DNA of 64,000 bases, from assembly GCF_024223415.1 (NCBI RefSeq), contig NZ_CP100500.1; one strand, given 5' to 3'. Each line of letters opens with the position of its first letter. Positions within the stretch are counted from its first letter, which is position 1. The notes under the pieces were generated by a model, which was not told the DNA's origin, searched no databases, and saw only the letters and a program-made list of their open reading frames with translations. Positions 34,201 to 55,609 of this stretch are shown piece by piece. This DNA is from Escherichia coli (GTDB lineage Bacteria; Pseudomonadota; Gammaproteobacteria; Enterobacterales; Enterobacteriaceae). Both the position numbers and the translations under genes were made by a program.

Positions 34201-34205
34201 TACGA

Positions 34206-35354
34206 TCACCAACGGCCGGATGAACCGCCGCCTCCTGAAGAACCGCCACCACCGCGGAAAGAATTTCTCGACGAAGAGCGAGAGTGAGCATTACGATTCC
34301 CCGTTTTCCTGTTGCTTTTTTCTCCTGATCCCAGCTTAAGATTGCCAGTAAATTTGGCCACAATGATCAGCAGAACGATGCCAGCAATGGTTATTGGACC
34401 GATAAAATGATCAATTAACCCAATAATTGTTGAGATGAATGCAATATCTTTATTACTGGCGAACACTAGGCACCATCCCACAATAATTATCAGCATCACG
34501 ACAAACAATGAATTTCGTCCTGATTCACGAACCTGCGGAGTCTTCTTTTGTTTTTTCACTTTAGCGTTTTTATTTTTTGGGGTCAGCATCATAGGAAATA
34601 CGCGGCACATATTAAAAACTACCGCGAGACGCTGCTTGCAGGTTGTTGCTAACAATAAACTAAAACAAACGACCGATACCCGCCGAATGATGACATCGTC
34701 CTGAAAGGAGAAAAACCAGACCATAGGGGTAATCATCGATATCATCCATATGCCACGCCGTGGGCGGCTGGCAAATCGCCAGAGGACAACGATGGCAACG
34801 ATCATCAGCAGTGTCCAGGCAAGACATGGCAGCGAACGTTGCGGATTAGCAAACAGATGATTGGCTAAAGCATCCAAAGGGCTAATGTTCGCTTTGATAT
34901 GGGTAAACTGTGCGATGCTTTCAATTCCGCCCGTTAATCCAGCAAAGAGATTGTTTTTTTCGAATTCTGGCTGCATATGGTAACGAACAATTTGCGCAGC
35001 TTGTTCCGGCGGCAACATCTGTTCCAGTCCATGTCCAATCTTCATTGACGCCAGCCCTTCCGGCCATACGACGAGAATTAAGATACCTTCGCCATATCGC
35101 TTCTCTCCAACGGGTTTCCAGTGATATACCCCGTATCTCTGCGAGGCTGCAAGTTTAATGTTTTTGCCCCCTGTGGTCGGCGTAACCAACACGGCCACCT
35201 GGAAGTGGTTTTGCTGCTCGAGAGTCTGTAATTGTTGAGTTAAAGCAGTTTGTTCTTCTGTCGTTAATGTCCCGGTTAAGTCAGTTACTGAAGGCCATTG
35301 TTCAGCGAATACCTGAAAACCGCATAGCATCAGAAGTAAGAGAAAAATACGCAT
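34206..35354 (-). CDS. TPM-domain membrane protein, paralogue 2 (longer, multi-TM)
   Basis: 382-aa ORF; signal peptide MRIFLLLLMLCGFQVFA; AAGGA SD; C-terminus GGGGSSGGGGSSGRW. Confidence 0.8.
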   Translation of the reverse strand: MRIFLLLLMLCGFQVFAEQWPSVTDLTGTLTTEEQTALTQQLQTLEQQNHFQVAVLVTPTTGGKNIKLAASQRYGVYHWKPVGEKRYGEGILILVVWPEGLASMKIGHGLEQMLPPEQAAQIVRYHMQPEFEKNNLFAGLTGGIESIAQFTHIKANISPLDALANHLFANPQRSLPCLAWTLLMIVAIVVLWRFASRPRRGIWMISMITPMVWFFSFQDDVIIRRVSVVCFSLLLATTCKQRLAVVFNMCRVFPMMLTPKNKNAKVKKQKKTPQVRESGRNSLFVVMLIIIVGWCLVFASNKDIAFISTIIGLIDHFIGPITIAGIVLLIIVAKFTGNLKLGSGEKSNRKTGNRNAHSRSSSRNSFRGGGGSSGGGGSSGRW

Positions 35355-35368
35355 ATCAATTCCTTTTG

Positions 35369-36262
35369 TTACCAGCGCCCGGAAGCGCCACCGCCACCAG
35401 ATGAACCGCCACCACCGCTGAAATTGTCATTGTTGAATGAAGAGGATGACGATGATGAATAGTGGGAGGAAGAATTGCTTCTTGTATGGCGTGATGGCTG
35501 GTTGACATCACGCATCAAATCCCGAACTTTTTTGCCGAAGGGGGTAAAAGCGATGGCGACAGCCAGGAACGGTGTGGCGAAGCAGAGTAATGTTGCGAGT
35601 ACTCCCCAGCTTCCGCTGAAGCCTGCTATAGGTAAAACAAAGGCCAGTACAATAGCTGCGAAGCAAATTACTCCCAGCGTTTTGATATATCCTCTGGCAG
35701 AAATAAACGTCAGTACTATCGCCCAGACTAACAATGCCCACCAACCGCTAAAGGGCAAAGGGTGATCGGTCGGTGTTATCGTTGCTAAATTATTCCCCGT
35801 AAGACGACTTTCAATATCGCTGATCCCCTTTTGTAAACCGCCAGCTAGGTCGCCTTTTTTAAATGCAGGAATAATACTGTTGCGAATAATTTTCCTGGAC
35901 TGTGCATCCGTAATAATACCTTCCAGCCCGTAACCGATTTCAATACGCACGGTATGATCCTGCCAGGCGACTAACAGTAGAACGCCATCATCACGGTCTT
36001 TATCACCCGGTTTCCAGCTATCGAATACCCGCGTTGCGTACTGCTCGATGGTTTCATCGCCTGTTGTTTCAACCACTAACACGACCAGTTGTGCGTGGCT
36101 TTTTTGCGTCAGGGCTTTAATCTGGTTGGTCAGGGTGTTTACTTCGCTGTTTGTTAATGTGCCCGTTAAGTCATTCACATACTTGGGTGATTCAGGTACT
36201 GGAATTTGTGTGGCAAACACAGATGAACAGAAGAAAGCCATAAGGAAGATAAAATTTCGCAT
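35369..36262 (-). CDS. TPM-domain membrane protein, paralogue 3
   Basis: ORF track to 36292; the ATG at 36262 (MRNFIFLMAFFCSSVFATQ...) has a GGGGAAG SD and a signal-peptide-like N-terminus; TPM core nearly identical to paralogue 1; C-terminus GGGGSSGGGGASGRW. Confidence 0.8.
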   Translation of the reverse strand: MRNFIFLMAFFCSSVFATQIPVPESPKYVNDLTGTLTNSEVNTLTNQIKALTQKSHAQLVVLVVETTGDETIEQYATRVFDSWKPGDKDRDDGVLLLVAWQDHTVRIEIGYGLEGIITDAQSRKIIRNSIIPAFKKGDLAGGLQKGISDIESRLTGNNLATITPTDHPLPFSGWWALLVWAIVLTFISARGYIKTLGVICFAAIVLAFVLPIAGFSGSWGVLATLLCFATPFLAVAIAFTPFGKKVRDLMRDVNQPSRHTRSNSSSHYSSSSSSSFNNDNFSGGGGSSGGGGASGRW

Positions 36263-36275
36263 AGAACTTCCCCGC

Positions 36276-36878
36276 TTAATGAGCATTAGCATTCTGGCTA
36301 AAATCTATTGTTGGGGCTTTACTTACTGCGGCGACATCATCCGGCAAATAATTTTTCTTTGGTGTGTAATCCATGACCTTTGCGGTTAACACAGCGGGGA
36401 ATTTGCGGATAGTGACATTATATTGTTCAATGGCTTTAATATATCTTCCTCGCGCAACGGCAATCCGATTTTCACTTCCTTCAAGCTGTACCATTAAATT
36501 TTGATAGAGTTCCTGAGATTTTAACTCAGGGTAACGCTCACTAATTATCGTTAACTGACCGAGAGTGCGAGTCACCTGCGCTTGAGCCTGTTGCCAGGCT
36601 TGTAATTTTTGTTCATCTCCCGGAGTTTGCTGAAGATCGCTACTGGCGCGATTAGCCTGGCTACGAGCCAATGTTACGGCTTCCAGTACATCTCGTTCAT
36701 GGCTGGAATAACCTTTAATGCTGGCGACAAGATTAGGAATAAGATCGGCGCGACGTTGATATTGATTCAATACCTCAGACCAGGAGGCGTTAACCTGCTC
36801 ATCATAGGTTTGAATATCGTTATATCCACAGCCTGATAAATTGAAAATAAATATAATTACGATGAATATTCTGAGCAT
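36276..36878 (-). CDS. lemA: LemA-family lipoprotein
   Basis: 200-aa ORF with lipobox (FNLSGC) and LemA-family helical region; first gene of the four-gene minus-strand operon. Confidence 0.8.
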   Translation of the reverse strand: MLRIFIVIIFIFNLSGCGYNDIQTYDEQVNASWSEVLNQYQRRADLIPNLVASIKGYSSHERDVLEAVTLARSQANRASSDLQQTPGDEQKLQAWQQAQAQVTRTLGQLTIISERYPELKSQELYQNLMVQLEGSENRIAVARGRYIKAIEQYNVTIRKFPAVLTAKVMDYTPKKNYLPDDVAAVSKAPTIDFSQNANAH

Positions 36879-37722: not shown

Positions 37723-38060
37723 TTAAACATTTATAAGCGTTATAAATGGGTGGAAACTGTAAAGACTTCTACTCATTTATATTCTTTGTCGTCTCTGAAA
37801 AACCTCCATTTTGCCCATCCTGAACTAATCATTATCATTCTCTACAAATTCTGTGGCGTTAATTTTTCGCTGGAGTGAAAACTATTGCGGTAAAGTTTGG
37901 TAGATTTTAGTTTGTATAGAGTTATTTTAAATATTTACCTTTTTAATCAATGGGTTAAGTGCTCTTTAACATGATGGATGTGTTGTTTGTGTGATACTGT
38001 AAAGTTGGTAGATTGTGACTGGCTTAAAAAATCATTAATTAATAATAGGTTATGTTTAGA
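37723..38060 (+). promoter_or_regulatory. CRISPR leader (AT-rich, promoter-containing)
   Basis: About 340 bp of AT-rich sequence ending ...TATGTTTAGA immediately before repeat 1; repeat orientation places the leader on this side. Confidence 0.65.
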
Positions 38061-38760
38061 GAGTTCCCCGCGCTAGCGGGGATAAACCGGCTGGATACCG
38101 ATCAATTCAATATCGTTTTACGAGTTCCCCGCGCTAGCGGGGATAAACCGGAATACCGATTCATAACGGCGGAAATGTGGATGAGTTCCCCGCGCTAGCG
38201 GGGATAAACCGGTTAATGATGTCAGTGGCGGTTTTCGTATCGCGAGTTCCCCGCGCTAGCGGGGATAAACCGAGTGAGGCAATCAAATGACCCGCCCGCA
38301 ATTAGAGTTCCCCGCGCCAGCGGGGATAAACCGTAAATCCCTCGCGCATCGAGTCAAATGTCGGAGAGTTCCCCGCGCCAGCGGGGATAAACCGGTCGCT
38401 GGAACGGGGCGAATAAAGAGGGGCTCGAGTTCCCCGCGCCAGCGGGGATAAACCGACAGCTCTTTCCCGTCGTTATCCAGTTGGTAAGAGTTCCCCGCGC
38501 CAGCGGGGATAAACCATATGATTCACGAATTACAGGAAACCAGCCGCCGAGTTCCCCGCGTCAGCGGGGGTAAACCGCTATCGGGGTGATTCTGCCAATG
38601 CTCAGAGTGGTGTTCCCCGCGCCAGCGGGGATAAACCGAGCGTTTGCTCCGGGTGGAATAACCCTGGCGGGTGTTCCCCGCTCCAGCGGGGATAAACCGT
38701 TTGCTGGAACCCAAAACTCAGCGCACAGGTTGTGTTCCCCGCGCCAGCGGGGATAAACCA
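38061..38760 (+). CRISPR. Type I-E CRISPR array, 12 repeats and 11 spacers (CRISPR2.3-equivalent locus between queE and ygcE)
   Basis: 29-nt repeat GAGTTCCCCGCGCCAGCGGGGATAAACCG with 32-nt spacers at an exact 61-bp period; repeats start at 38061, 38122, 38183, 38244, 38305, 38366, 38427, 38488, 38549, 38610, 38671, 38732; repeats 1 to 4 carry GCGCTAGC, repeats 10 to 12 begin GTGTT, repeats 8 and 12 end in A. Confidence 0.97.
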
Positions 38761-39397: not shown

Positions 39398-40876
39398 TTA
39401 CGCATTCGACCAGCTCTGGATCGAATCCGCATTCCCCAATTCCCCATGCATCACTTCATACGATTTTTTCAGGATCACATCAGTATGTTTGGTTAGGTCT
39501 TTGAAAATGCCTTTATTCATCGCGTCGTAGCGTTTGGCATTGCTCTCAATCGGTATAAAGATATCTTTCACGCGAACCATTTTATCGACAGCCGTTGCGT
39601 AATCCGGGTATAGCCCCAGACCTACCGCTGTATTAATCGCTGCCCCCAGGCTTGCACAACCGTTAATGGCGTTACGGCGTGCCGGAAGGTTGAACACGTC
39701 GGCAAAAATCTGCATAAACAGATCGCTGTTCGAACCGCCGCCAGTAATGATCACATGCTTTGCAAAGTGATTCATTTCATTACACATATTGTCGTAATTG
39801 TTCTTCAGCGTCAGCGCCACGCTTTCCAGTATAGAACGATATATCCATGCGTAATCCATGCTGGAATCAAAGCCGATCATAATCCCACGTTTGTAGGGTT
39901 CCCACGGGTTGGTCAGCCAGTCCAGCACCGTCATCAGACCATTACAGCCAGGCGGCACACAAGAAGCTTTTTTGTTGAGCAAATCTTCCGGTGAAAGATC
40001 CTGTGCTTTGGCATCCTGAATTAACGACTCGCCTAGCATGTCGCGCAGCCAGCTCACCGTCCACATGCCTTTACGGATACCGTAACCTTCATACAGCAAT
40101 GTTTGCGGAATAGAAGACATAATCGGCCAGTACGCCACCGGATCTTTCGGCAGTGCTTTGCCGTTCATCATCAATGCGATGTAAGTGCCAAGAGAAATTA
40201 CCGCCGTTTCATCATCCAGTAATCCGGCCCCCAGAGCTTCTACCGGTTTATCACTGGTGGTACAAACAACCGGCAGTCCTGCCGGGAAATGTGTCGCCAG
40301 TGCGGCTTGTGGTGTGATATGTCCGAGGACGGTGCCAGGCATTTGCACATCAAACAGCATATGACGGGGGATATTAAACTTATCCATTACCGCAGCATCT
40401 TCACTCCATGCCCAGCTCTTATAATCCACCGGCCACTGACCAAAATAGTTGGAGATATTGTCTTTAAACTCGCCGGTTAAGCGATGCGTCAGATAACCCG
40501 AAAAAGAGGTGACATAGGCCACGTCAGGATTAGTGTGTTCGTAGGGACGCGTTACGCGTGCATCCTGCCAGCTAATCAATGGCGCAGCTGGCGTGCCATC
40601 GGCTTTCAATAACGCACGGCAGCAACGGATGGATCCCAGACCAATACCGACAATATCTTCTTTATTCCCGGCAAACTGACTCATCAAATCGTGACCGGCA
40701 AAACATAATGATGCCCATAAATCGTCGTCAGGATGTTCTGCGGTATCGGCATCTGGCGTGTGCATCGGCTGCAATAAGCCTTTACCTTCGCAAACCACAT
40801 TACCTTCCAGATCGTACATCACCACTTTTGTGCTCTGACTTCCGCCATCAATCCCTATGATGTATTTTTTCGACAT
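39398..40876 (-). CDS. ygcE: FGGY-family carbohydrate kinase YgcE
   Basis: 492-aa ORF MSKKYIIGIDGGSQSTKVVMYDLEGNVV... (FGGY N- and C-terminal domains). Confidence 0.88.
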   Translation of the reverse strand: MSKKYIIGIDGGSQSTKVVMYDLEGNVVCEGKGLLQPMHTPDADTAEHPDDDLWASLCFAGHDLMSQFAGNKEDIVGIGLGSIRCCRALLKADGTPAAPLISWQDARVTRPYEHTNPDVAYVTSFSGYLTHRLTGEFKDNISNYFGQWPVDYKSWAWSEDAAVMDKFNIPRHMLFDVQMPGTVLGHITPQAALATHFPAGLPVVCTTSDKPVEALGAGLLDDETAVISLGTYIALMMNGKALPKDPVAYWPIMSSIPQTLLYEGYGIRKGMWTVSWLRDMLGESLIQDAKAQDLSPEDLLNKKASCVPPGCNGLMTVLDWLTNPWEPYKRGIMIGFDSSMDYAWIYRSILESVALTLKNNYDNMCNEMNHFAKHVIITGGGSNSDLFMQIFADVFNLPARRNAINGCASLGAAINTAVGLGLYPDYATAVDKMVRVKDIFIPIESNAKRYDAMNKGIFKDLTKHTDVILKKSYEVMHGELGNADSIQSWSNA

Positions 40877-40902
40877 GATTTTTCTCCTGTAATTTTCCTG
40901 GC

Positions 40903-42180
40903 TTACTTGCTGCTAGCTATTGCGGGGGCGCTATCAGCAGTACGAATTTTTTGGAACAGCAAAAAGGTAAAGACAATCACCATGGCAAGCGCCGCCATGC
41001 CCATCAGCCACATATTGCGGTAGGCTTCTGCTGCGGGCAGGGTGTCTTGCCAGTGGCCGATAATGGGGTAAACGAAGACATCCGGCAGGAATCCAATCAC
41101 CGAACAAATACCTACCGTGGTGCCCATAATGTAAGACGGTGTTCTCGCTTCGCCAGGGCAGGCCCAGTACAGCCCGCGTGAGGCGTAACAGGTGAATCCC
41201 AGCAGTAAAATCAGGCCAATCCCCATCGCGACCGATTGCGGGTTAGAGTTCGTGACGAGCAGGGCAGTCAGTGCCAGCAGGCCGATGATGGAAAGGATTT
41301 GAATCACGCGGGTAGGGGATTTCACTTTGCTGTAGGTGGTGATTATGCCGCCAAGTGGGCCGCACAGCGCGCGGAATATTTTGTTGATCACAATCCCCAT
41401 GTAGCTCGCCGCCACCAGCGACATGCCGTACATTTCGGTCAGATAGTTGGTGGAGTAACTCAGAATGGCGTAGATGGTGAAGACACCAAAAATCACCATG
41501 CTGCAATACCAGGTGGTGCTGATGCGCAAAACGGCCAGGATGTCGCTAAGCTGGAATGATTGTTTTTCTTCGTTATTGGCACTGCGCAGGTTGTTGTTAT
41601 CGCTAACAAAAAACCAGCACAGAATCCCCAACAAGATGTAAACCACACTGTAGATGATAATGACCGTTTTCAGGCTGGCGCTGTCATCCGGTGCAAAGCG
41701 AGAAAAAACCCACATGGTAAACACTGCCAGCGACATTACACCGACGCCGCGCAGCCCTTCCATCCAGCCCATAATTTTCCCTTGCTCGCTATGATCGCCA
41801 AGCAACGATGCGGCTTTAATCGACACCGACCACAGCATTAAAATCGTTGTTATCGCAAAGGCGACCTGAATACAGAGCATTACCCACAGCGGTGGATACG
41901 TTGCCATTAACAGACCCAGTAATCCGGTAATGATCATCGCGGAAGTAATCATTTTGCGGTGTGAAAATTTATCGGCAATAACGCCGCTGGGGGCATAAAG
42001 AATAATAGCCGCAATACCAAAGGTACTCATTATTAAACCTATCTCGGTATTGCTGAATCCCATAAATTTCGCCATGGGAATTTGATAAATATAACGTAAA
42101 TAAGCCAGGTCGAAACTAACGCCGCCGCTAAAACTAATTATCGCGAGGGTTATCCAACGGCGATATGAGTTGTGTTGCAT
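40903..42180 (-). CDS. yqcE: MFS transporter YqcE
   Basis: 425-aa polytopic ORF. Confidence 0.88.
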   Translation of the reverse strand: MQHNSYRRWITLAIISFSGGVSFDLAYLRYIYQIPMAKFMGFSNTEIGLIMSTFGIAAIILYAPSGVIADKFSHRKMITSAMIITGLLGLLMATYPPLWVMLCIQVAFAITTILMLWSVSIKAASLLGDHSEQGKIMGWMEGLRGVGVMSLAVFTMWVFSRFAPDDSASLKTVIIIYSVVYILLGILCWFFVSDNNNLRSANNEEKQSFQLSDILAVLRISTTWYCSMVIFGVFTIYAILSYSTNYLTEMYGMSLVAASYMGIVINKIFRALCGPLGGIITTYSKVKSPTRVIQILSIIGLLALTALLVTNSNPQSVAMGIGLILLLGFTCYASRGLYWACPGEARTPSYIMGTTVGICSVIGFLPDVFVYPIIGHWQDTLPAAEAYRNMWLMGMAALAMVIVFTFLLFQKIRTADSAPAIASSK

Positions 42181-42358
42181 ATCGTATTCCCATTTGTAAT
42201 AGACAAAAAAAAGAGAAAAGTAAGCCGCCCTTTCAGGTGGATTACTTTTCTCAGGTCTCTAGTAATTGAAATAATAAATAACATGGAAAGCAGAGGTGTT
42301 GTGTGAGAGTAATCACGCTTCTGCTTTTTAAAACTATTTGATAATACGAATATCACAC

Positions 42359-42374
42359 TGTGATTACGATCACA
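42359..42374. promoter_or_regulatory. CRP-like site in the yqcE / ygcW divergent region
   Basis: TGTGAttacgaTCACA, perfect consensus half-sites, overlapped by a second palindrome TCACAcTGTGA at 42353..42363. Confidence 0.55.
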
Positions 42375-42427
42375 TTAGCAGTTATGTCCTTATGCTAAAA
42401 ATTATCTCCAGTTACCAGAGATAATGA

Positions 42428-42474
42428 GAAAGGTAACTTCCCTCTCGCGGGGGAAGTTACCTTTCTTTTTTTTT
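42428..42474 (+). terminator. Strong intrinsic terminator in the ygcW leader (candidate attenuator or antitermination target)
   Basis: GAAAGGTAACTTCCC-tctcgcgg-GGGAAGTTACCTTTC, 15-bp perfect stem followed by 9 consecutive T; ends 24 nt before the ygcW start codon. Confidence 0.8.
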
Positions 42475-42498
42475 GCCTTACGGAAATTGGAGCTAACT

Positions 42499-43284
42499 AT
42501 GTCAATCGAATCTCTCAATGCGTTCTCAATGGATTTTTTTTCCCTGAAAGGTAAAACCGCAATTGTTACCGGCGGGAATAGCGGTTTAGGCCAGGCATTT
42601 GCCATGGCGTTGGCCAAAGCAGGCGCAAATGTCTTTATTCCAAGTTTTGTCAAAGATAACGGCGAAACAAAGGAAATGATTGAAAATCAGGGTGTTGAGG
42701 TGGACTTCATGCAGGTGGATATCACCGCAGAAGGCGCGCCGCAGAAGATTATCGCTGCCTGCTGTGAGCGTTTCGGTACAGTTGATATTCTGGTTAACAA
42801 TGCCGGTATTTGTAAGCTGAATAAGGTGCTGGACTTCGGTCGTGCCGACTGGGACCCGATGATTGATGTGAACCTGACCGCCGCATTCGAGTTAAGCTAC
42901 GAAGCGGCAAAAATTATGATCCCGCAGAAAAGCGGTAAAATCATTAATATCTGTTCATTGTTCTCTTACTTAGGTGGACAATGGTCACCTGCATATTCTG
43001 CTACTAAACATGCTCTTGCCGGATTCACCAAAGCTTATTGTGATGAACTAGGTCAATATAATATTCAGGTAAATGGTATCGCCCCTGGCTATTATGCAAC
43101 AGATATTACGCTGGCGACACGCAGTAATCCAGAAACCAATCAGCGCGTTCTTGATCATATTCCGGCAAACCGTTGGGGCGATACTCAAGATTTAATGGGC
43201 GCAGCCGTATTCCTCGCAAGTCAGGCATCGAATTATGTCAACGGGCATTTATTAGTGGTCGATGGCGGTTATTTAGTGCGCTAA
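42499..43284 (+). CDS. ygcW: Short-chain dehydrogenase/reductase YgcW (KduD-like)
   Basis: ORF track begins at 42424 and translates the terminator (PFFFF); the ATG at 42499 (MSIESLNAFSMDFFSLKGKTAIVTGGNSGLG, 261 aa) has a GGAG SD; Rossmann TGGxxGxG motif. Confidence 0.88.
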   Translation: MSIESLNAFSMDFFSLKGKTAIVTGGNSGLGQAFAMALAKAGANVFIPSFVKDNGETKEMIENQGVEVDFMQVDITAEGAPQKIIAACCERFGTVDILVNNAGICKLNKVLDFGRADWDPMIDVNLTAAFELSYEAAKIMIPQKSGKIINICSLFSYLGGQWSPAYSATKHALAGFTKAYCDELGQYNIQVNGIAPGYYATDITLATRSNPETNQRVLDHIPANRWGDTQDLMGAAVFLASQASNYVNGHLLVVDGGYLVR

Positions 43285-43353
43285 CCCATAACGGTGGTTT
43301 CTGTTTTCTCTTATTAATGATTATTCCATTTTTATTATCAGGAAGGAATTACT

Positions 43354-44808
43354 ATGTCTTTATCTCGCGCAGCGATTGTCGACCAGCTAAAGGAAATTGT
43401 TGGTGCAGATCGCGTAATTACCGATGAAACAGTATTAAAGAAGAACAGTATTGACCGTTTTCGTAAATTTCCGGATATTCATGGTATTTATACTTTGCCG
43501 ATTCCGGCTGCGGTCGTAAAACTCGGTTCCACAGAACAAGTCTCCCGTGTGCTGAATTTTATGAATGCGCACAAAATTAACGGTGTGCCGCGTACCGGTG
43601 CTTCCGCCACCGAAGGTGGGCTGGAAACTGTTGTAGAAAACTCGGTGGTGCTCGACGGCTCCGCCATGAATCAAATCATTAATATTGATATTGAGAATAT
43701 GCAGGCGACGGCGCAATGTGGCGTTCCCCTGGAAGTGCTGGAAAACGCGTTGCGTGAAAAAGGTTACACCACGGGGCACTCTCCGCAGTCAAAGCCGCTG
43801 GCGCAGATGGGCGGCCTGGTAGCAACCCGCAGTATCGGGCAGTTCTCCACACTCTACGGTGCAATCGAAGATATGGTCGTTGGTCTGGAAGCAGTATTGG
43901 CTGATGGCACCGTCACACGCATTAAAAACGTGCCACGCCGCGCGGCTGGCCCGGACATTCGTCACATCATCATCGGCAACGAAGGTGCATTGTGCTATAT
44001 CACTGAAGTAACAGTGAAAATCTTTAAATTCACCCCGGAAAACAACCTCTTCTACGGCTATATCCTGGAAGACATGAAAACCGGCTTCAACATCCTGCGT
44101 GAAATCATGGTGGAAGGGTATCGTCCGTCGATCGCTCGTTTGTATGACGCTGAAGATGGCACCCAACACTTCACCCATTTTGCCGACGGAAAATGTGTGC
44201 TGATCTTTATGGCTGAAGGTAACCCTCGCATTGCGAAGGCGACGGGCGAAGGGATTGCGGAAATCGTTGCCCGCTACCCGCAATGCCAACGCGTGGACAG
44301 CAAGCTGATCGAAACCTGGTTTAACAACCTGAACTGGGGACCGGATAAAGTGGCTGCCGAACGTGTGCAGATCCTCAAAACCGGCAACATGGGCTTTACT
44401 ACCGAAGTGTCCGGCTGCTGGAGCTGCATCCACGAAATCTACGAAAGCGTTATTAACCGTATTCGTACCGAGTTCCCGCACGCCGACGACATCACTATGC
44501 TGGGCGGTCACTCCTCTCATAGCTATCAGAACGGCACCAACATGTACTTCGTCTACGACTACAACGTTGTCAACTGTAAGCCGGAAGAGGAAATCGACAA
44601 GTACCACAATCCGCTCAACAAAATCATCTGCGAAGAAACCATTCGCCTCGGCGGTTCGATGGTGCACCACCACGGTATCGGTAAACATCGCGTTCACTGG
44701 AGCAAACTGGAACACGGCAGCGCGTGGGCGTTGCTGGAAGGGCTGAAAAAGCAGTTCGATCCTAATGGCATTATGAATACGGGTACTATCTATCCGATTG
44801 AAAAATAA
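43354..44808 (+). CDS. ygcU: FAD-linked oxidase/dehydrogenase YgcU
   Basis: 484-aa ORF with FAD-binding PCMH-type domain (GlcD / alkyl-DHAP synthase-like). Confidence 0.88.
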   Translation: MSLSRAAIVDQLKEIVGADRVITDETVLKKNSIDRFRKFPDIHGIYTLPIPAAVVKLGSTEQVSRVLNFMNAHKINGVPRTGASATEGGLETVVENSVVLDGSAMNQIINIDIENMQATAQCGVPLEVLENALREKGYTTGHSPQSKPLAQMGGLVATRSIGQFSTLYGAIEDMVVGLEAVLADGTVTRIKNVPRRAAGPDIRHIIIGNEGALCYITEVTVKIFKFTPENNLFYGYILEDMKTGFNILREIMVEGYRPSIARLYDAEDGTQHFTHFADGKCVLIFMAEGNPRIAKATGEGIAEIVARYPQCQRVDSKLIETWFNNLNWGPDKVAAERVQILKTGNMGFTTEVSGCWSCIHEIYESVINRIRTEFPHADDITMLGGHSSHSYQNGTNMYFVYDYNVVNCKPEEEIDKYHNPLNKIICEETIRLGGSMVHHHGIGKHRVHWSKLEHGSAWALLEGLKKQFDPNGIMNTGTIYPIEK

Positions 44809-44849
44809 TGTGTCAGGCAGCGTTCCGCGATGACGGGGCGTTGCCTTTT

Positions 44850-44879
44850 CGGCTTCTCAGGCGAGAAGCCGTTCTTATT
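44850..44879 (+). terminator. Intercistronic hairpin with T-rich tail between ygcU and ygcS
   Basis: CGGCTTCTC-aggc-GAGAAGCCG, 9-bp stem followed by TTCTTATT. Confidence 0.5.
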
Positions 44880-44901
44880 ACCGGACAATGAAGGGGTAAA
44901 G

Positions 44902-46239
44902 ATGAACACTTCACCGGTGCGAATGGATGATTTACCGCTTAACCGTTTTCACTGCCGCATTGCTGCGCTCACTTTCGGCGCACACCTGACCGACGGTTAT
45001 GTTCTCGGCGTCATTGGTTACGCCATTATTCAGCTTACGCCCGCCATGCAACTGACGCCGTTTATGGCGGGAATGATCGGCGGCTCGGCGCTCCTTGGTT
45101 TGTTTCTTGGCAGCCTGGTTCTTGGGTGGATCTCCGACCATATTGGTCGGCAAAAAATCTTCACCTTCAGCTTTTTGCTGATTACGCTCGCTTCGTTCTT
45201 GCAATTTTTTGCCACCACGCCAGAGCATCTTATTGGGCTGCGCATTTTGATCGGCATTGGTCTGGGAGGCGATTACTCAGTAGGTCACACCTTGCTGGCT
45301 GAATTTTCCCCGCGCCGCCATCGCGGTATTTTGCTGGGCGCATTCAGCGTGGTGTGGACCGTAGGCTATGTGTTGGCAAGTATTGCCGGACATCACTTTA
45401 TTAGCGAAAGCCCGGAGGCCTGGCGCTGGCTGCTGGCATCGGCAGCTCTGCCCGCGTTGTTGATTACGTTATTACGCTGGGGAACGCCAGAATCGCCACG
45501 CTGGCTACTGCGCCAGGGGCGTTTTGCAGAAGCTCACGCTATCGTGCATCGCTATTTTGGTCCCCATGTTTTACTGGGCGATGAAGTGGCAACGGCGACC
45601 CATAAACACATCAAAACCTTGTTCTCTTCGCGCTACTGGCGGCGCACGGCGTTTAACAGCGTCTTCTTTGTCTGCCTCGTAATCCCATGGTTTGTGATTT
45701 ATACCTGGCTGCCAACTATCGCCCAGACTATTGGACTGGAAGATGCGCTGACTGCCAGCCTGATGCTTAATGCGTTGTTAATTGTGGGCGCGCTGCTGGG
45801 ATTAGTTCTGACGCACCTGCTGGCACATCGCAAGTTTTTGCTGGGAAGTTTTTTGCTGCTGGCGGCAACGCTGGTAGTGATGGCCTGTTTGCCTTCCGGC
45901 AGTTCATTAACGCTACTGCTTTTTGTTCTCTTCAGCACCACCATTTCGGCAGTCAGTAATCTGGTGGGCATTTTGCCTGCGGAAAGTTTTCCTACTGACA
46001 TTCGCTCGCTGGGCGTCGGTTTTGCCACCGCCATGAGTCGGTTGGGGGCGGCGGTAAGTACTGGCCTGCTGCCGTGGGTGCTGGCGCAGTGGGGAATGCA
46101 AGTCACCTTATTGCTCCTGGCGGCAGTGTTGTTGGTTGGTTTTGTTGTGACCTGGCTATGGGCACCAGAAACCAAAGCCCTCCCGCTGGTGGCGGCGGGA
46201 AATGTAGGAGGTGCGAATGAACATTCTGTTAGCGTTTAA
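44902..46239 (+). CDS. ygcS: MFS transporter YgcS
   Basis: ATG at 44902 with AAGGGG SD (MNTSPVRMDDLPLNRFH..., 445 aa); the ORF track start at 44830 is an upstream extension. Confidence 0.88.
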   Translation: MNTSPVRMDDLPLNRFHCRIAALTFGAHLTDGYVLGVIGYAIIQLTPAMQLTPFMAGMIGGSALLGLFLGSLVLGWISDHIGRQKIFTFSFLLITLASFLQFFATTPEHLIGLRILIGIGLGGDYSVGHTLLAEFSPRRHRGILLGAFSVVWTVGYVLASIAGHHFISESPEAWRWLLASAALPALLITLLRWGTPESPRWLLRQGRFAEAHAIVHRYFGPHVLLGDEVATATHKHIKTLFSSRYWRRTAFNSVFFVCLVIPWFVIYTWLPTIAQTIGLEDALTASLMLNALLIVGALLGLVLTHLLAHRKFLLGSFLLLAATLVVMACLPSGSSLTLLLFVLFSTTISAVSNLVGILPAESFPTDIRSLGVGFATAMSRLGAAVSTGLLPWVLAQWGMQVTLLLLAAVLLVGFVVTWLWAPETKALPLVAAGNVGGANEHSVSV

Positions 46240-46996
46240 AGCCGAACCGGATGCCGGAATGCTGGCGGAAAAAGAGTGGCAGGCGGCGGCTCAGGGTAAT
46301 AGCGGACCGGATGTTTCGCTACTGCGAAGTTTACTCGGTGCTGATGAACAGGCTGCCGCCGCGCTGCTGTTGGCGCAGAGAAAAAACGGTACGCCGATGT
46401 CTTTAACCGCGTTGAGCATGGGGGATGAACGGGCGTTACACTGGCTGCGCTATCTCATGGCTCTTGGGTTTGAGGAAGCTGTATTGCTGGAGACGGCGGC
46501 AGATCTGCGCTTTGCGTCGGAATTTGTCGCTCGCCATATTGCCGAATGGCAGCGTCAGAATCCGCTGGATCTGATAATTACCGGCTGCCAAAGCAGCGAA
46601 GGGCAGAATGGGCAAACGCCATTTTTGCTGGCGGAAATGCTGGGCTGGCCCTGCTTCACCCAGGTGGAGCGTTTCACTCTCGACGCGCTGTTTATCACCC
46701 TCGAACAGCGTACTGAACATGGGCTGCGCTGTTGCCGGGTTCGCTTGCCTGCGGTGATTGCCGTGCGTCAGTGCGGTGAAGTGGCCTTGCCAGTACCGGG
46801 AATGCGCCAGCGAATGGCTGCGGGGAAAGCGGAAATTATCCGTAAAACTGTTGCTGCCGAATTGCCAGCGATGCAGTGTCTGCAACTGGCAAGAGCAGAG
46901 CAACGACGCGGAGCGACGCTGATTGATGGGCAAACGGTAGCAGAAAAAGCGCAAAAGCTATGGCAGAACTATTTACGCCAAAGGATGCAGCCATGA
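46217..46996 (+). CDS. ygcR: Electron transfer flavoprotein beta-subunit-like (FixA-like) YgcR
   Basis: ATG at 46217 with AGGAGG SD (MNILLAFKAEPDAGML..., 259 aa); overlaps the ygcS 3' end. Confidence 0.85.
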   Translation: MNILLAFKAEPDAGMLAEKEWQAAAQGNSGPDVSLLRSLLGADEQAAAALLLAQRKNGTPMSLTALSMGDERALHWLRYLMALGFEEAVLLETAADLRFASEFVARHIAEWQRQNPLDLIITGCQSSEGQNGQTPFLLAEMLGWPCFTQVERFTLDALFITLEQRTEHGLRCCRVRLPAVIAVRQCGEVALPVPGMRQRMAAGKAEIIRKTVAAELPAMQCLQLARAEQRRGATLIDGQTVAEKAQKLWQNYLRQRMQP

Positions 46997-47853
46997 ATAT
47001 CGCAATTGTGACAATAAATCAGGAGAATGCCGCAATAGCAAGCTGGCTGGCGGCACAGGATTTCAGCGGTTGTACCCTGGCGCACTGGCAGATTGAACCT
47101 CAGCCTGTAGTGGCGGAACAGGTGCTGGATGCGTTGGTGGAACAGTGGCAGCGAACGCCTGCGGACGTTGTTCTCTTTCCGCCGGGAACGTTTGGCGATG
47201 AACTGTCGACCCGGCTGGCCTGGCGTTTACATGGTGCAAGCATCTGCCAGGTGACTTCGTTAGAGATTCCAATCGTAAGCGTGCGCAAATCCCACTGGGG
47301 AAATGCGCTAACGGCGACGCTGCAAACAGAAAAACGCCCGCTATGTCTTTCCCTGGCGCGCCAGGCGGGAGCAGATAAAAATGCCACGTTGCCCTCTGGT
47401 ATTCAGCAACTGAACATAGTCCCAGGTGCGCTTCCGGACTGGCTGGTTAGCATAGAGAACCTGAAAAATGTTAGCCGCGACCCATTAGCTGAGGCCAGAC
47501 GGGTGTTGGTGGTAGGGCAGGGCGGAGAGGCAGATAACCAGGAAATCGCTATGCTGGCAGAAAAGCTGGGAGCCGAAGTGGGCTACAGTCGGGCGCGAGT
47601 GATGAACGGTGGCGTTGATGCTGAAAAAGTGATTGGTATTTCCGGACATCTGCTGGCACCTGAGGTGTGTATTGTTGTTGGCGCTTCTGGCGCAGCAGCG
47701 TTAATGGCGGGCGTGCGCAATAGCAAGTTTGTGGTGGCGATTAATCATGACGCCAGCGCTGCGGTATTTTCACAGGCAGATGTTGGCGTGGTTGATGACT
47801 GGAAAGTGGTGCTGGAGGCACTGGTGACAAACATTCACGCAGATTGCCAATAA
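46993..47853 (+). CDS. ygcQ: Electron transfer flavoprotein alpha-subunit-like (FixB-like) YgcQ
   Basis: ATG at 46993 (MNIAIVTINQENAAIASW..., 286 aa); 4-bp overlap with ygcR. Confidence 0.85.
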   Translation: MNIAIVTINQENAAIASWLAAQDFSGCTLAHWQIEPQPVVAEQVLDALVEQWQRTPADVVLFPPGTFGDELSTRLAWRLHGASICQVTSLEIPIVSVRKSHWGNALTATLQTEKRPLCLSLARQAGADKNATLPSGIQQLNIVPGALPDWLVSIENLKNVSRDPLAEARRVLVVGQGGEADNQEIAMLAEKLGAEVGYSRARVMNGGVDAEKVIGISGHLLAPEVCIVVGASGAAALMAGVRNSKFVVAINHDASAAVFSQADVGVVDDWKVVLEALVTNIHADCQ

Positions 47854-47857
47854 CGTG

Positions 47858-47965
47858 TTGCCGGATGATCCTGCCTACGGTTCTGGCCTGGGGACTTGTA
47901 GGCCTGATAAGACGCGTCAAGCGTCGCATCAGGTGCTGAATGTCGGATGTGGCGTGTAGCCTACA
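47858..47965. repeat. REP/BIME cluster between convergent ygcQ and ygcP
   Basis: TGTAGGCCTGATAAGACGCGTCAAGCGTCGCATCAGG plus flanking partial REP units. Confidence 0.7.
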
Positions 47966-47999
47966 AATCACACAAATTCAATTCGTTACGAATATCCCG

Positions 48000-48575
48000 T
48001 CAAAGCAATTTTTTCGCTAATGTCCAGACCCCGGTATTCGTGGTGGAAAGCGCCACGACACCCGCGTTAATCGCATTACGCGCATCTTCTTCATCGCAAA
48101 CCAGCCCACCGGCAATCAGCGGTTGGCGGATTTTCTCCGTCACCCAGCCCAGTACTTTGGGCATGCAGCCTGGCAGGATCTCAATACAATCCGGATTCGA
48201 TTGCGCAACTTGCTTATCAATGTTGTGAAACGAAATCGAATCAACAATAAACAGGCGATGAATACAGAAAAAACCTTCCGCTCTTGCCGCTTTTAGCATC
48301 GATGCTTTGGTGCTGATAATGCCGTCCGCCTCGGTCACCAGTTTCAAAAACTGAATCACGACTTCTTTATTTGACGCGCCTTCCAGCAAATCAACATGAA
48401 TAAAAGCATATTTCCCGGCGTTCTTAATCTTTTTAACGATATTACTGATGGTGCAGATATTGCCGTACAACACGGAAATAAACTGGCATTCAGAGTCGAT
48501 TGCCAGTTGCAGGCTGGCATTATCTTTTACGGCAGCAATCACCGGATTCTGGCGGAGCAGGTGTAAGAGGGGCAT
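48000..48575 (-). CDS. ygcP: GlpP-family putative antiterminator YgcP
   Basis: 191-aa ORF MPLLHLLRQNPVIAAVKDNASLQLAIDSE... (G3P-responsive antiterminator family). Confidence 0.85.
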   Translation of the reverse strand: MPLLHLLRQNPVIAAVKDNASLQLAIDSECQFISVLYGNICTISNIVKKIKNAGKYAFIHVDLLEGASNKEVVIQFLKLVTEADGIISTKASMLKAARAEGFFCIHRLFIVDSISFHNIDKQVAQSNPDCIEILPGCMPKVLGWVTEKIRQPLIAGGLVCDEEDARNAINAGVVALSTTNTGVWTLAKKLL

Positions 48576-48591
48576 AAATTATCCTTATTAT

Positions 48592-48852
48592 TTATCCAAA
48601 GCGGTAGGTGATGCCGAATCCGGAAGGTGGATAGCGCCACTGTTGTAGTGTTGATTCGTCGCACAGCAAACGGCAGGTGCCACACTCCAGGCAACTGCGA
48701 TAGTCAATACGTAAGTCACCTTCCGGTGTGAGCGAAAAAAGACCTGCCGGACAGGCGTTAATCAACCGTTCTGCCGTCTGGCGCTCAACGGAGTCAGCCG
48801 GAACAATGTGCGGCGCATCAGCAACGCGCCAGAGATTACGGGCTACAGACAT
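48592..48852 (-). CDS. ygcO: Ferredoxin-like protein YgcO (FixX-like)
   Basis: ATG at 48852 with AGGAG SD (MSVARNLWRVADAPH..., 86 aa); Cys motif CLECGTCRLLC. Confidence 0.85.
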   Translation of the reverse strand: MSVARNLWRVADAPHIVPADSVERQTAERLINACPAGLFSLTPEGDLRIDYRSCLECGTCRLLCDESTLQQWRYPPSGFGITYRFG

Positions 48853-50114
48853 CGCAGACTCCTGATAACATCGCCCGCCAGATGCCACAGGCCGTGACGA
48901 CGTAAATGACGCCAGAATAACTGGCGCAGCGGTGGAACAGGTTTATCACCCTGATCCCATAAATCGCGGGAAATATCCTGCATTAACGCAGGCCACGCCC
49001 GATACCAGCCAGGGCGTTGCAAAAGCGCCGGAACATGCTGATAACGTTGTAGAACATCCCACAGCAGGCTGCGCTCTACGTTGTGATGATAAAGCGGAAA
49101 CAGATTTTGCGGCTCGCGGTGCTGGCAGGCGCTTATCAGTGTTTGTGCCGCCGCCTGCGCGCCAGTTAGCGCCGTATCCATGCCGCGCACGGAAATTCCG
49201 GTATTGACGCAACTGCGCAACGCATCGCCTACCAGCAGCCAGCCGTTACCGGCGTATTGCACTGGCATACTGTGCAAGCCACCTTCTGGCACCAGATGCG
49301 CACCATACTCCAGTGATTCCGTGTTTTTGATAAGTGGGCGCACTGCCGGATGCGCTTTAAAGCGAGTCAGCAGCTCGCTTGCCGGAACACGACTTTGCGT
49401 AAGTGAAGAGAGCGGGCAAACAATCCCTAACGAGAGCGTTTGTTGATTAGTATAAAGAAATGCGCCGCCGGGAAAGTCATCACAGATTCCGCCGCTGAAC
49501 AGCAACGCTGCGCCTTCGTTATTCTCCAGATGAAAACGTTCTTCAATAGCGGATGTTTCCAGCGACAGCACTTCTTTGATCCCCAACGCCATCGCTTCGC
49601 CAGCAGGACGAGTCACTAATCCGTGACGCTCAGCCAGGACGCTGTTGGCACCTTCTGCCAGCACCACATAACGGGCGCGGAGAATATCGTCACCACAAAT
49701 GACACCACACACCCTGCCGTCTTCTTCATACAGAGCATCCACCGTCGCACCAGGGATGCACTCGACACCTTCTTTTTCGGCTTCGGCAACCAGCCACGGA
49801 TCGAACCGTGCACGTAATACACTCCAGGATTCACCGCCGGGCTGTAAGCTGGAAAACGTCGTTGCGCCATCCGGCGTTAACAGGGAAAGGCTTTCGTGAG
49901 TGATGAGTCGTTCAAGAGGCGCGGTCAGATGAAATTGCGGGAGGAGTTCCGCGAGTGCATGGGTATATAACCGCCCGCCGGAAAGATTTTTGCTGCCGGG
50001 GATTTCAGCGCGTTCCAGTAACAAAACGGATAAACCCGCTCGCGCGCAGCGTAACGCGCAAGCGGTGCCTGCAATACCGGCACCAATAATAATAATGTCG
50101 CAGTCGTCTTCCAT
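48843..50114 (-). CDS. ygcN: FAD-dependent oxidoreductase YgcN (FixC / ETF-QO-like)
   Basis: ATG at 50114 (MEDDCDIIIIGAGIAGTACA..., 423 aa; dinucleotide-binding GxGxxG); the ORF track start at 50144 is a GTG extension. Confidence 0.85.
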   Translation of the reverse strand: MEDDCDIIIIGAGIAGTACALRCARAGLSVLLLERAEIPGSKNLSGGRLYTHALAELLPQFHLTAPLERLITHESLSLLTPDGATTFSSLQPGGESWSVLRARFDPWLVAEAEKEGVECIPGATVDALYEEDGRVCGVICGDDILRARYVVLAEGANSVLAERHGLVTRPAGEAMALGIKEVLSLETSAIEERFHLENNEGAALLFSGGICDDFPGGAFLYTNQQTLSLGIVCPLSSLTQSRVPASELLTRFKAHPAVRPLIKNTESLEYGAHLVPEGGLHSMPVQYAGNGWLLVGDALRSCVNTGISVRGMDTALTGAQAAAQTLISACQHREPQNLFPLYHHNVERSLLWDVLQRYQHVPALLQRPGWYRAWPALMQDISRDLWDQGDKPVPPLRQLFWRHLRRHGLWHLAGDVIRSLRCL

Positions 50115-55456: not shown

Positions 55457-55609
55457 ATGCTAACAAAATATGCCCTTGTGGCAATCATAGTACTGTGTTG
55501 TACAGTACTGGGATTCACGCTCATGGTAGGCGACTCGTTGTGTGAGTTGAGTATCAGAGAACGTGGTATGGAGTTTAAGGCTGTTCTCGCTTACGAATCG
55601 AAGAAGTAG
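55457..55609 (+). CDS. hokX: Hok/Gef-family type I toxin (hokX-like), 50 aa
   Basis: Below the ORF-track size cutoff; GGGAGG SD 6 nt upstream; [50 protein letters not shown] = one TM helix plus the Hok signature (SLCE...R...AYES). Confidence 0.8.

Follow-up and report, generated by a model that had tools for sequence, protein, structure and literature searches.

The ygc cluster of Escherichia coli comprises ten contiguous genes at positions 39398-50114 (10.7 kb) of the window, by which we mean the whole 64-kb stretch of contig NZ_CP100500.1 (RefSeq assembly GCF_024223415.1) analyzed here. We hold with moderate confidence that this cluster is a CRP-activated catabolic island in which a conserved enzymatic core and a leader RNA switch governed by YgcP serve the chemistry of a substituted glycerol. 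These ten genes of the best-studied bacterium are still without a function. What was already known is an annotated orphan cluster; what is new is a four-gene core, a flavoenzyme (YgcU) of the type of AGPS (alkyl-dihydroxyacetone phosphate (DHAP) synthase), a cationic genomic context, and a GlpP-family leader that occurs twice in the window. An earlier note on this DNA had listed the genes and their families, and NCBIfam (Pfam for YgcP) bears out that inventory at the superfamily level; none of the ten proteins attains an NCBIfam equivalog cut-off. The same note had called the substrate undefined, which is still so in the searchable literature, where we found no substrate for the cluster, no study of YgcP, and no description of the leaders.

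A conserved core and an accessory electron-transfer layer

We compared 80 loci from at least five phyla, with genes mapped by BLASTP against reference proteins. Presence or absence of the electron-transfer flavoprotein (ETF) genes was judged within ±10 kb, for which 78 well-covered loci were usable. The earlier note had proposed a genomic-context comparison of this kind, and across the 80 loci it yielded a four-gene core to which the ETF is accessory. In all sampled lineages, the core consists of the short-chain dehydrogenase/reductase (SDR) YgcW, YgcU, the FGGY kinase YgcE and, usually, the GlpP-like protein YgcP. Protein identity across loci spans 63-97% for YgcW, 42-97% for the kinase, and 38-98% for the GlpP-like protein. 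The YgcE kinase is part of the core in ~70 loci, and YgcU is joined to an SDR and a kinase in 80 of 80. YgcU itself stands out for its conservation, keeping 64-75% identity in Sporomusa, Clostridia, halophilic Bacilli, Desulfobacterales, SAR324, Photobacterium, and Actinomycetes. As judged by this comparison of sequences, the shared unit is the four-gene core together with a predicted leader of ~68 nt placed before catabolic and transporter operons.

The ETF pair is present in 60 of the 78 usable loci and absent within ~10 kb in the other 18. In most anaerobes, as in most Enterobacterales, it comes after ygcU, and ETF genes lie directly 3' of ygcU homologues in ~40 loci outside E. coli. Loci without it belong to Halobacillus/Virgibacillus/Thalassobacillus, Saccharopolyspora and Prauserella, SAR324, Alkalihalobacillus, and the Erwinia/Pantoea/Izhakiella/Serratia proteamaculans group. 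FixC- and FixX-like genes were found in Enterobacterales loci only. In anaerobes, another oxidase that is truly GlcD/LctD-like is often present as well and, in some cases, another ETF, this one bearing a ferredoxin domain. The earlier note spoke, fairly enough, of an ETF module fused to a pathway; the comparison shows the ETF to be accessory, with the Fix-like part added in Enterobacterales.

Two loci carried ygc genes resembling the E. coli/Enterobacter-type versions in unexpected company: those of L005, a Planctomycetota metagenome-assembled genome (MAG), are 100% identical to them, and those of L028, a contig labelled Chryseobacterium sp. 18061, ~88% identical. Both are most likely contaminated or mis-binned assemblies rather than genuine occurrences in those phyla.

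A leader RNA shared across phyla and its likely regulator

The earlier note overlooked two terminators in the 5' untranslated regions (UTRs) of the divergent operons. The ygcW leader holds a 19-bp terminator hairpin followed by U9 (42426-42467, plus strand), ~25 nt before the ATG. The yqcE leader holds a terminator at ~42204-42248 on the minus strand, whose T-run ends ~24 nt before the yqcE ATG. The architecture of the ygcW leader (element 1, Table 1; the yqcE leader is element 2) recurs before the SDR gene in other genera with a recognizable sequence, AGUUACY-AGAG-n-GAGAAAAGUAAC...GCUUUUCUC-U8, and a loop AGAG...GAGAAA is conserved among the aligned leaders. Within element 1, an antiterminator can form between region A (AGUUACC) and region B (GGUAACU), to the exclusion of the terminator. 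The terminators fold at -34.2 kcal/mol (z = -6.6) in element 1 and -22.3 kcal/mol (z = -3.9) in element 2, whereas the antiterminator halves are weak (-6.7 and -1.4 kcal/mol, respectively). Because the terminators are far more stable than the antiterminator halves, the default state should be OFF, with a protein needed to relieve it.

Alternative pairing is supported by covariation in alignment A2, which contains 30 leaders. The antiterminator helix is 97.6% paired with double changes in five of its seven pairs; none of 500 shuffles did as well, and slid controls were only 19-54% paired. The terminator helix is 88.7% paired, with double changes in 13 of 19 pairs. In many leaders, terminator pairs 34-61 and 35-60 do not form, yet the B-region bases involved are always paired in the antiterminator. 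Since the terminator pairs open while the antiterminator pairs hold, the A:B helix appears to be selected in its own right. The antiterminator is confirmed by 59 independent copies outside the seed, in which pairing over its inner six pairs is ~97% and AU and GC pairs interchange cleanly.

We built a covariance model (R1) and searched the window and 83 loci with it. Element 1 scored 79.6 bits, and element 2, which was not in the seed, scored 62 bits (E = 1e-9). SDR genes of Photobacterium, Sporomusa, Halobacillus, Clostridia, and Saccharopolyspora have the leader in front of them as well; leader terminators are conserved in at least 57 loci, and a divergent pair of elements occurs in nearly all Enterobacterales loci. 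All 118 elements beyond the window lie on the same strand as, and directly upstream of, a pathway gene. The downstream gene is the SDR in 58 cases, a major facilitator superfamily (MFS) transporter of YqcE type in 44, a BCCT transporter in six, and YgcU in four; rarer cases are another MFS transporter (three), OpuA (one), and an MttB-like gene (one). Upstream of ygcN, the R1 search found no third element, so the regulator encoded by ygcN-O-P would not be under its own attenuation.

YgcP and the leader RNA co-occur across loci. Well-covered loci that lack ygcP (L002, Desulfobacterales, SAR324, and others) also lack the element, and the exceptions with an element and no visible ygcP are L033, L062, and L074, two of them on short contigs, besides a weak match in L083. 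In Rfam, no family came near its gathering score for the leader region. The ~68-nt leader is a new predicted cis-regulatory RNA of Proteobacteria, Bacillota, and Actinomycetes that is absent from Rfam. It matters whatever the substrate proves to be, being conserved over several phyla and missing from that database.

The two leader terminators are likely targets of YgcP. Pfam places G3P_antiterm (PF04309) across positions 1-173 of its 173 residues (E = 1.6e-62), and the solved GlpP relative 3KTS matches at 1e-27. YgcP and Bacillus subtilis GlpP therefore belong to one full-length G3P_antiterm family. The targets of B. subtilis GlpP (glpD, glpFK, and glpTQ) have a promoter, a binding site, and a terminator in the 5' UTR (PMC9604022), and the ygc leaders share this layout of promoter, binding region, and intrinsic terminator. 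In both systems, a kinase of the regulon makes the presumed phosphorylated effector. YgcP nevertheless forms its own subfamily, with orthologues across phyla mostly 50-60% identical (38-61% overall). Its regulon of SDR, AGPS-like enzyme, ETF, and betaine-type transporters is unlike the glpD and glpFK of GlpP; YgcP extends beyond Firmicutes to Proteobacteria and Actinomycetes, and its RNA motif stands outside Rfam.

Each divergent operon begins with a leader whose strong intrinsic terminator would form by default. YgcP, presumably loaded with the phosphorylated product of YgcE, would stabilize the weak antiterminator and allow transcription to continue. The architecture is visible in the leaders themselves, and antitermination is the mechanism that we infer from it. 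Together with YgcP, the two leader terminators offer a basis for a reporter with which to find the inducer.

Between the divergent operons lies TGTGATTACGATCACA, the sole perfect TGTGA-N6-TCACA palindrome in the window, where 0.05 would be expected. Judging from where the elements begin, we place this CRP site near -41 relative to ygcW and near -93 relative to yqcE. The yqcE-ygcE operon is listed as CRP-activated (PMC8085971), and PhyloScan ranks the yqcE/ygcW spacer with its top predicted sites for CRP (PMC1794230). The perfect palindrome, the published predictions, and the expression data are consistent with CRP control.

In two Bacillota MAGs (L075, 7000-14031, and L072, 10007-16600, both minus strand), an element heads a second operon, scoring 59.9 bits in L075. 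The genes of this operon specify a methyltransferase of the MttB family, a PanB-like hydroxymethyltransferase, an ABC transporter of the OpuA type, and a protein resembling proline racemase/hydroxyproline epimerase. The YgcP regulon would therefore reach quaternary-amine demethylation in these genomes.

YgcU has an AGPS-type active site

The signature flavoenzyme YgcU has the Pfam architecture FAD_binding_4 plus FAD-oxidase_C. Its best match in the Protein Data Bank (PDB) is AGPS (4BBY; 2e-40 by phmmer), which aligns over the flavin adenine dinucleotide (FAD) domain and the C-terminal substrate domain alike. LctD, LDHD, D2HGDH, and glycolate oxidase align only to YgcU residues ~7-268, the FAD half. 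YgcU R262, Y398, and H438-440 align with AGPS R419, Y578, and H615-617, and none of them varies in alignment A1, which covers 14 sequences from several phyla. Mutant structures of AGPS (Y578F, R419H; 4BC7 and 4BCA) fixed the numbering. An AlphaFold model of YgcU was made from a 14-sequence alignment and used for coarse fold ranking only (pLDDT 65.6); with this low-confidence model as query, the top 37 Foldseek matches were all AGPS.

The earlier note had called YgcU an FAD-linked oxidase; within that family, it appears AGPS-like rather than GlcD-like, carrying the AGPS active-site residues instead of a substrate domain of the GlcD type. The catalytic residues of AGPS work on C1 of DHAP esters. 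An AGPS-type active site in YgcU would narrow its chemistry to C1-substituted analogues of DHAP or glycerol-3-phosphate (G3P). The two proteins share a fold and the Arg/Tyr/His constellation, yet differ in several respects. YgcU is shorter (484 versus 658 residues, with the alignment beginning at about AGPS residue 193-215), appears cytoplasmic and soluble, and belongs to a catabolic operon. In most cases an ETF is coupled to it, whereas AGPS needs none, and its partner transporters point to small polar substrates rather than the fatty alcohols of AGPS. AGPS (EC 2.5.1.26) exchanges acyl for alkyl on DHAP with no net redox change, and the ETF linkage of YgcU speaks for a departure from that reaction. 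We therefore treat YgcU as having putative AGPS-like catalytic machinery, yet not as an alkyl-DHAP synthase. A 2026 paper describes it as an 'FAD-binding oxidoreductase' and reports that deletion of ygcU was without effect in its assay (PMC13012123).

It is very improbable that YgcU and YgcR/YgcQ form a D-2-hydroxyacid dehydrogenase-ETF of the LctD-LctBC/D2HGDH type while the kinase and SDR serve a separate function. The matches of YgcU to GlcD, LctD, LDHD, and D2HGDH do have E-values between 1e-16 and 1e-41, the best solved match of YgcQ is LctC, and GlcD-family enzymes classically pass electrons to an ETF. However, those matches cover the FAD half only, and the substrate domain aligns to AGPS alone with its Arg, Tyr, and three His residues kept. 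Anaerobes moreover hold a separate, truly GlcD-like second oxidase beside the cluster, and YgcU is inseparable from the SDR and kinase in every locus compared.

Kinase, transporters, and neighbors suggest a cationic glycerol derivative

YgcE is clearly FGGY at the domain level. Its NCBIfam matches are below threshold (XylB 144 bits against a cut-off of 380, LsrK 140, and GlpK 100), and its best solved relative is LsrK (4e-30), followed by glycerol kinases (2e-19). YgcW scores 350 bits against NF005390, whose cut-off is 369. Of the two transporters, YqcE has a weak likeness (65 bits) to the D-galactonate/anion:cation symporter family and gave no relative in the solved-structure search; it is a probable importer. 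The nearest solved homologues of YgcS are human OCTN2, OCT1, and OCT2 (9e-23 to 4e-20), ahead of sugar porters. Over-expression of YgcS raised the output of nicotinamide mononucleotide from nicotinamide (PMC8601175).

Beyond the Enterobacterales and Actinomycetes, the transporters of the cluster are of the BCCT type in 14 loci and the OpuA/ProX ABC type in ~7. MttB-family corrinoid methyltransferases occur in or beside the operon in six loci from three phyla. Other recurring neighbors are aldehyde dehydrogenases (ALDHs) resembling betaine-aldehyde dehydrogenase, the formaldehyde-activating enzyme Fae, and an aldo-keto reductase similar to the reductases of L-glyceraldehyde-3-phosphate and methylglyoxal. 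A non-exhaustive survey, in which recurring neighbor families were clustered and annotated, turned up no aldolase, isomerase, dehydratase, or epimerase.

B. subtilis GlpP responds to glycerol-3-phosphate. A GlpP-type sensor, a kinase resembling LsrK and glycerol kinase, an SDR, and the AGPS residues together suggest a substituted glycerol, and the cross-phylum context steers towards quaternary-ammonium or otherwise cationic glycerol derivatives. Taken from homology and neighborhood, the cluster probably degrades a cationic substituted glycerol, of quaternary-ammonium type, rather than an ordinary sugar. Since the E. coli cluster has no BCCT, OpuA, or MttB, the compound degraded by Enterobacterales may not be the one used in other phyla.

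The operon of L002 (Alkalihalobacillus) encodes OpuAC, an aspartase-like lyase, a betaine-aldehyde-dehydrogenase-like ALDH, a zinc alcohol dehydrogenase (ADH), a BCCT transporter, the SDR, the FGGY kinase, and YgcU. As a working hypothesis, deacylated betaine-lipid head groups such as glyceryl-trimethylhomoserine would fit this operon strikingly. Homoserine betaine would pass through the ADH and ALDH to trimethyl-aspartate, from which the aspartase-like lyase would release fumarate and trimethylamine. Glycerophosphocholine was also considered as a substrate but judged less economical than the ubiquitous GlpQ/UgpQ route; it and other cationic glycerol derivatives are lesser candidates.

Homologues of Fae above the NCBIfam cut-off lie ~1-7 kb upstream of the core in L034, L039, and L048, which belong to the Erwinia/Enterobacter group, and in L050, which belongs to SAR324. 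Fae thus stands beside ETF-less clusters in two phyla, accompanied by the aldo-keto reductase and the ALDH described above. This neighborhood hints at a C1 (formaldehyde-level) or oxo-aldehyde by-product.

Probable electron transfer from YgcU

The term 'Fix-type' used in the earlier note for the ETF system suits one half of it. YgcN matches PRK10015 (376 bits) and FixC (365 bits) best, both under cut-off, and FixX is the best match of YgcO (82 bits, cut-off 166), which retains the cysteines CP...CxxCxxCxxxC; both are clear paralogues of the FixC/X type. The ETF subunits are not of that kind. YgcR scores 30 bits against FixA (cut-off 219), and YgcQ scores 61 against FixB (cut-off 549) and 69 against PRK11916 (cut-off 528). 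In NCBIfam, YgcR reaches 44 bits, and it matches Paracoccus ETF beta at 2.6e-11; homologues of the two subunits carry PF01012 and PF00766. The best solved match of YgcQ is LctC (1.3e-22), to which its FAD-binding C-terminal half aligns (LctC residues 336-393); YgcQ has no N-terminal ferredoxin domain.

LctC comes from a flavin dehydrogenase-ETF complex. Because the ETF follows ygcU in ~40 loci and the best match of YgcQ is LctC, YgcU is the probable ETF partner, which would imply a net two-electron oxidation. Where the ETF is present, YgcU would hand two electrons to YgcR/YgcQ and, in the Enterobacterales, these would continue to quinone through YgcN/YgcO. LctBCD of Acetobacterium woodii (7QH2), the ETF-linked D2HGDH and LDHD, and ygc all set a FAD_binding_4 enzyme beside an ETF with presumed docking, and anaerobic ygc versions carry a second Lct-like oxidase with a ferredoxin-domain ETF. 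Against this likeness, the substrate domain of YgcU is AGPS-like rather than LctD-like, YgcQ lacks the ferredoxin domain, and nothing about the ygc cluster points to electron bifurcation.

Similar logic, with ETF beta and alpha, a FixC-like protein, and a FixX-like protein, is found in fixABCX (with caiTABCDE) and ydiQRST (with ydiO). These two systems take part in anaerobic reductive reactions of a quaternary-ammonium compound (carried by the BCCT transporter CaiT) and of enoyl-CoA, respectively. The cai substrate and its BCCT carrier parallel the context of ygc in other loci. However, YgcR and YgcQ are far more divergent than the fix and ydi ETFs, the ygc partner is an AGPS-type FAD enzyme where fix and ydi have an acyl-CoA dehydrogenase, and the ygc ETF and FixC/X-like genes are divided over two convergent operons, unlike fixABCX.

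The paralogy raises the distinctly unlikely case that the ETF works reductively, with YgcN/YgcO and YgcR/YgcQ feeding YgcU for anaerobic reductive cleavage of a C-O or C-N bond, as has been proposed for FixABCX and CaiA in carnitine respiration. It would fit the reductive company of fixABCX and ydiQRST, the greater frequency of the ETF in anaerobes, and the carnitine-like cations suggested by YgcS and the BCCT context. On the other side, aerobic lineages use the core without an ETF and with no compensating change in YgcU, enzymes of the VAO/AGPS family are oxidative or redox-neutral, and the mapped loci contain no reductase-type partner such as an acyl-CoA dehydrogenase.

A 'gatekeeper' residue separating oxidase from dehydrogenase forms of YgcU was sought and rejected: loci with and without the ETF differ only weakly, at residue 476. 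In the absence of such a difference, the idea that aerobic versions are recognizable oxidases was dropped.

A proposed pathway and its alternatives

Under the substituted-glycerol reading, a glycerol-like polyol with a polar, probably cationic or quaternary-ammonium group would enter through YqcE or YgcS. YgcE would phosphorylate it to a G3P analogue, the likely effector of YgcP, and YgcW would oxidize the C2 alcohol to a ketone, giving a DHAP analogue. YgcU would then act at C1 by AGPS-like flavin chemistry, yielding the freed substituent and a product at the triose-phosphate level. Flavin chemistry would be called for at C1 because an alpha-keto ether or ammonium group cannot depart by simple beta-elimination. 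Set beside ether-lipid synthesis in eukaryotes, the trio of kinase, SDR, and AGPS-type enzyme would correspond to alkylglycerol kinase, acyl/alkyl-DHAP reductase, and AGPS run in reverse, in catabolic order.

The erythritol pathway of Brucella and Rhizobium is similar in phosphorylating a polyol (EryA, FGGY) and then oxidizing the phosphate with an FAD-dependent dehydrogenase tied to the respiratory chain (EryB). EryB is GlpD-like (DAO family), whereas YgcU is VAO/AGPS-like. The erythritol pathway also needs isomerases, of which none recurs among the surveyed ygc neighbors, and it uses a repressor where ygc has an antiterminator.

The earlier note had favored an ordinary sugar alcohol or sugar acid, oxidized by YgcW and YgcU and phosphorylated by YgcE, with electrons leaving through a Fix-type ETF. 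We consider this unlikely. YgcW is nearly KduD-like and also resembles gluconate-5-dehydrogenase, YqcE is weakly like D-galactonate-type carriers, YgcE belongs to the FGGY family of sugar and polyol kinases and bears the RefSeq name carbohydrate kinase, and CRP activates other sugar operons too. What counts against a sugar is that the (non-exhaustive) survey of recurring neighbors met none of the aldolases, isomerases, dehydratases, or epimerases named above, that the YgcU active site is of AGPS type, and that BCCT and OpuA transporters serve the cluster in other phyla, with MttB, betaine-aldehyde-dehydrogenase-like, and Fae neighbors. YgcS is also nearer to organic-cation carriers (OCTN2 and OCT1) than to sugar porters, and the ETF is dispensable in 18 loci.

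Several observations weigh against the substituted-glycerol reading. The kinase is far less conserved (42-58%) than YgcW and YgcU. The proximity of YgcW to KduD models (350 bits, cut-off 369) fits a sugar acid, as does the weak resemblance of YqcE to sugar-acid carriers, and the E. coli cluster has none of the BCCT, OpuA, and MttB genes seen elsewhere. The N-terminal ~190 residues of AGPS are missing from YgcU, whose AlphaFold model is poor (pLDDT 65.6), and the proposed chemistry is read from homologues and gene neighborhood. The AGPS reaction is redox-neutral, and the analogy therefore does not predict an obligatory ETF partner. Furthermore, 18 loci have no linked ETF, and no YgcU residue separates ETF-containing from ETF-less loci.

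A broader version of the same idea is speculative, and we think it improbable as a whole. In it, the core would be a widespread, unrecognized bacterial route for C1-O or C1-N cleavage of substituted glycerols, taking ether-lipid steps backwards. Deacylated head groups of betaine lipids, glyceryl-N,N,N-trimethylhomoserine for one, would be among its substrates; the freed betaine would go to MttB or to the ADH/ALDH/lyase series, and control would lie with the new cross-phylum GlpP-family switch. If the betaine-lipid route were true, it would supply a missing step in the turnover of betaine lipids, which are abundant in algae and fungi, and might connect with the production of trimethylamine.

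Upkeep and annotation of the locus

E. coli strains KV7 and SCU-316 match the 10.7-kb stretch at 100% identity, and gene coordinates (Table 1) are those of the RefSeq annotation of the identical KV7 stretch carried over to window numbering. All ten open reading frames (ORFs) of the cluster are open and intact. The overlaps reported in the earlier note, 23 nt for ygcS/ygcR, 4 nt (ATGA) for ygcR/ygcQ, and 10 nt for ygcO/ygcN, are exact by sequence.

Table 1. Features of the ygc cluster in window coordinates
Feature	Position	Strand	Description
ygcE	39398-40876	-	FGGY-family kinase
yqcE	40903-42180	-	MFS transporter; gene 1 of the yqcE-ygcE operon
leader RNA element 2	42204-42270	-	yqcE 5' UTR; covariance model R1
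CRP-type palindrome TGTGATTACGATCACA	42359-42374	no strand	between the divergent operons
leader RNA element 1	42407-42474	+	ygcW 5' UTR
ygcW	42499-43284	+	SDR oxidoreductase, KduD/gluconate-5-dehydrogenase-like
ygcU	43354-44808	+	FAD enzyme, AGPS type
ygcS	44830-46239	+	MFS transporter; RefSeq start 44830, K-12-style start 44902
ygcR	46217-46996	+	divergent ETF beta subunit
ygcQ	46993-47853	+	ETF alpha subunit
ygcP	48000-48575	-	GlpP-family RNA-binding antiterminator; final gene of ygcN-O-P
ygcO	48592-48852	-	FixX-like ferredoxin
ygcN	48843-50114	-	FixC/YdiS-like flavoprotein, putative ETF:quinone oxidoreductase

The cluster is present in 5060-5101 of 5426 complete E. coli genomes (~94%), the lower figure counting genomes with at least 80% of the 10.7-kb stretch, and ~6% are without it. 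Relative to K-12, dN/dS lies between 0 and 0.32 over all ten genes. It is lowest for ygcP (0, with zero nonsynonymous changes), followed by ygcU (0.024), ygcE (0.04), and ygcW (0.07), and looser for ygcQ (0.19) and ygcR (0.23). Protein change in the ETF and FixC/X-like genes is several-fold faster than in the core (dN/dS of 0.19-0.32 versus 0-0.07). In Citrobacter, YgcQ is ~60% identical and YgcU 92%. Because dN/dS indicates purifying selection on each of them, the ygc genes are real and maintained, and the cluster is a maintained, functional unit.

That the cluster is a cryptic, effectively silent remnant with no present physiological role in E. coli is hardly credible. The literature offers neither phenotype nor substrate, and the ygcU deletion mentioned above had no effect in one study; the default terminators of the leaders are very strong, and some genomes have no cluster. 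Yet ten intact genes under the constraint just described, retention in ~94% of genomes, and a leader RNA conserved with compensatory changes across the Enterobacterales all speak against decay.

An apparent anomaly in ygcR and ygcQ, at 88% protein identity in one strain, was set aside as ordinary allelic diversity under looser constraint.

The cluster is flanked by queE and a CRISPR array on one side and by queD-cysJIH on the other. The repeat array occupies 37939-38760, between queE and ygcE (coordinates from the identical KV7 stretch), and cas3 and a hok/gef-family toxin gene lie past cysH (~55457-55609 and 55782 onward). With the array and cas3 around it, the ygc cluster sits inside the type I-E CRISPR-cas neighborhood of E. 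coli. Upstream of queE, at ~33398-36756, the KV7 annotation places a LemA-family gene and then three TPM-domain genes.

Some details bear on annotation. If ygcW were started at the in-frame ATG at 42424, it would gain 25 codons and run across the leader terminator. The sensible choice is the RefSeq start, 42499, with its GGAG ribosome-binding site, and automated callers could mis-annotate it. A GC-rich 9-bp hairpin, CGGCUUCUC-AGGC-GAGAAGCCG, is located at 44850-44871, after the ygcU stop and before the K-12-style start of ygcS, and falls within the longer RefSeq ygcS ORF; it might serve as an internal attenuator or a processing site. The 146-nt spacer between the convergent ends of ygcQ and ygcP contains REP/BIME-like palindromes, GCCGGATG...GTAGGCCTGATAAGACGCG...CGCATCAGG, at 47860-47965, which probably explain why BLAST with the whole region hit a median of four places per genome.

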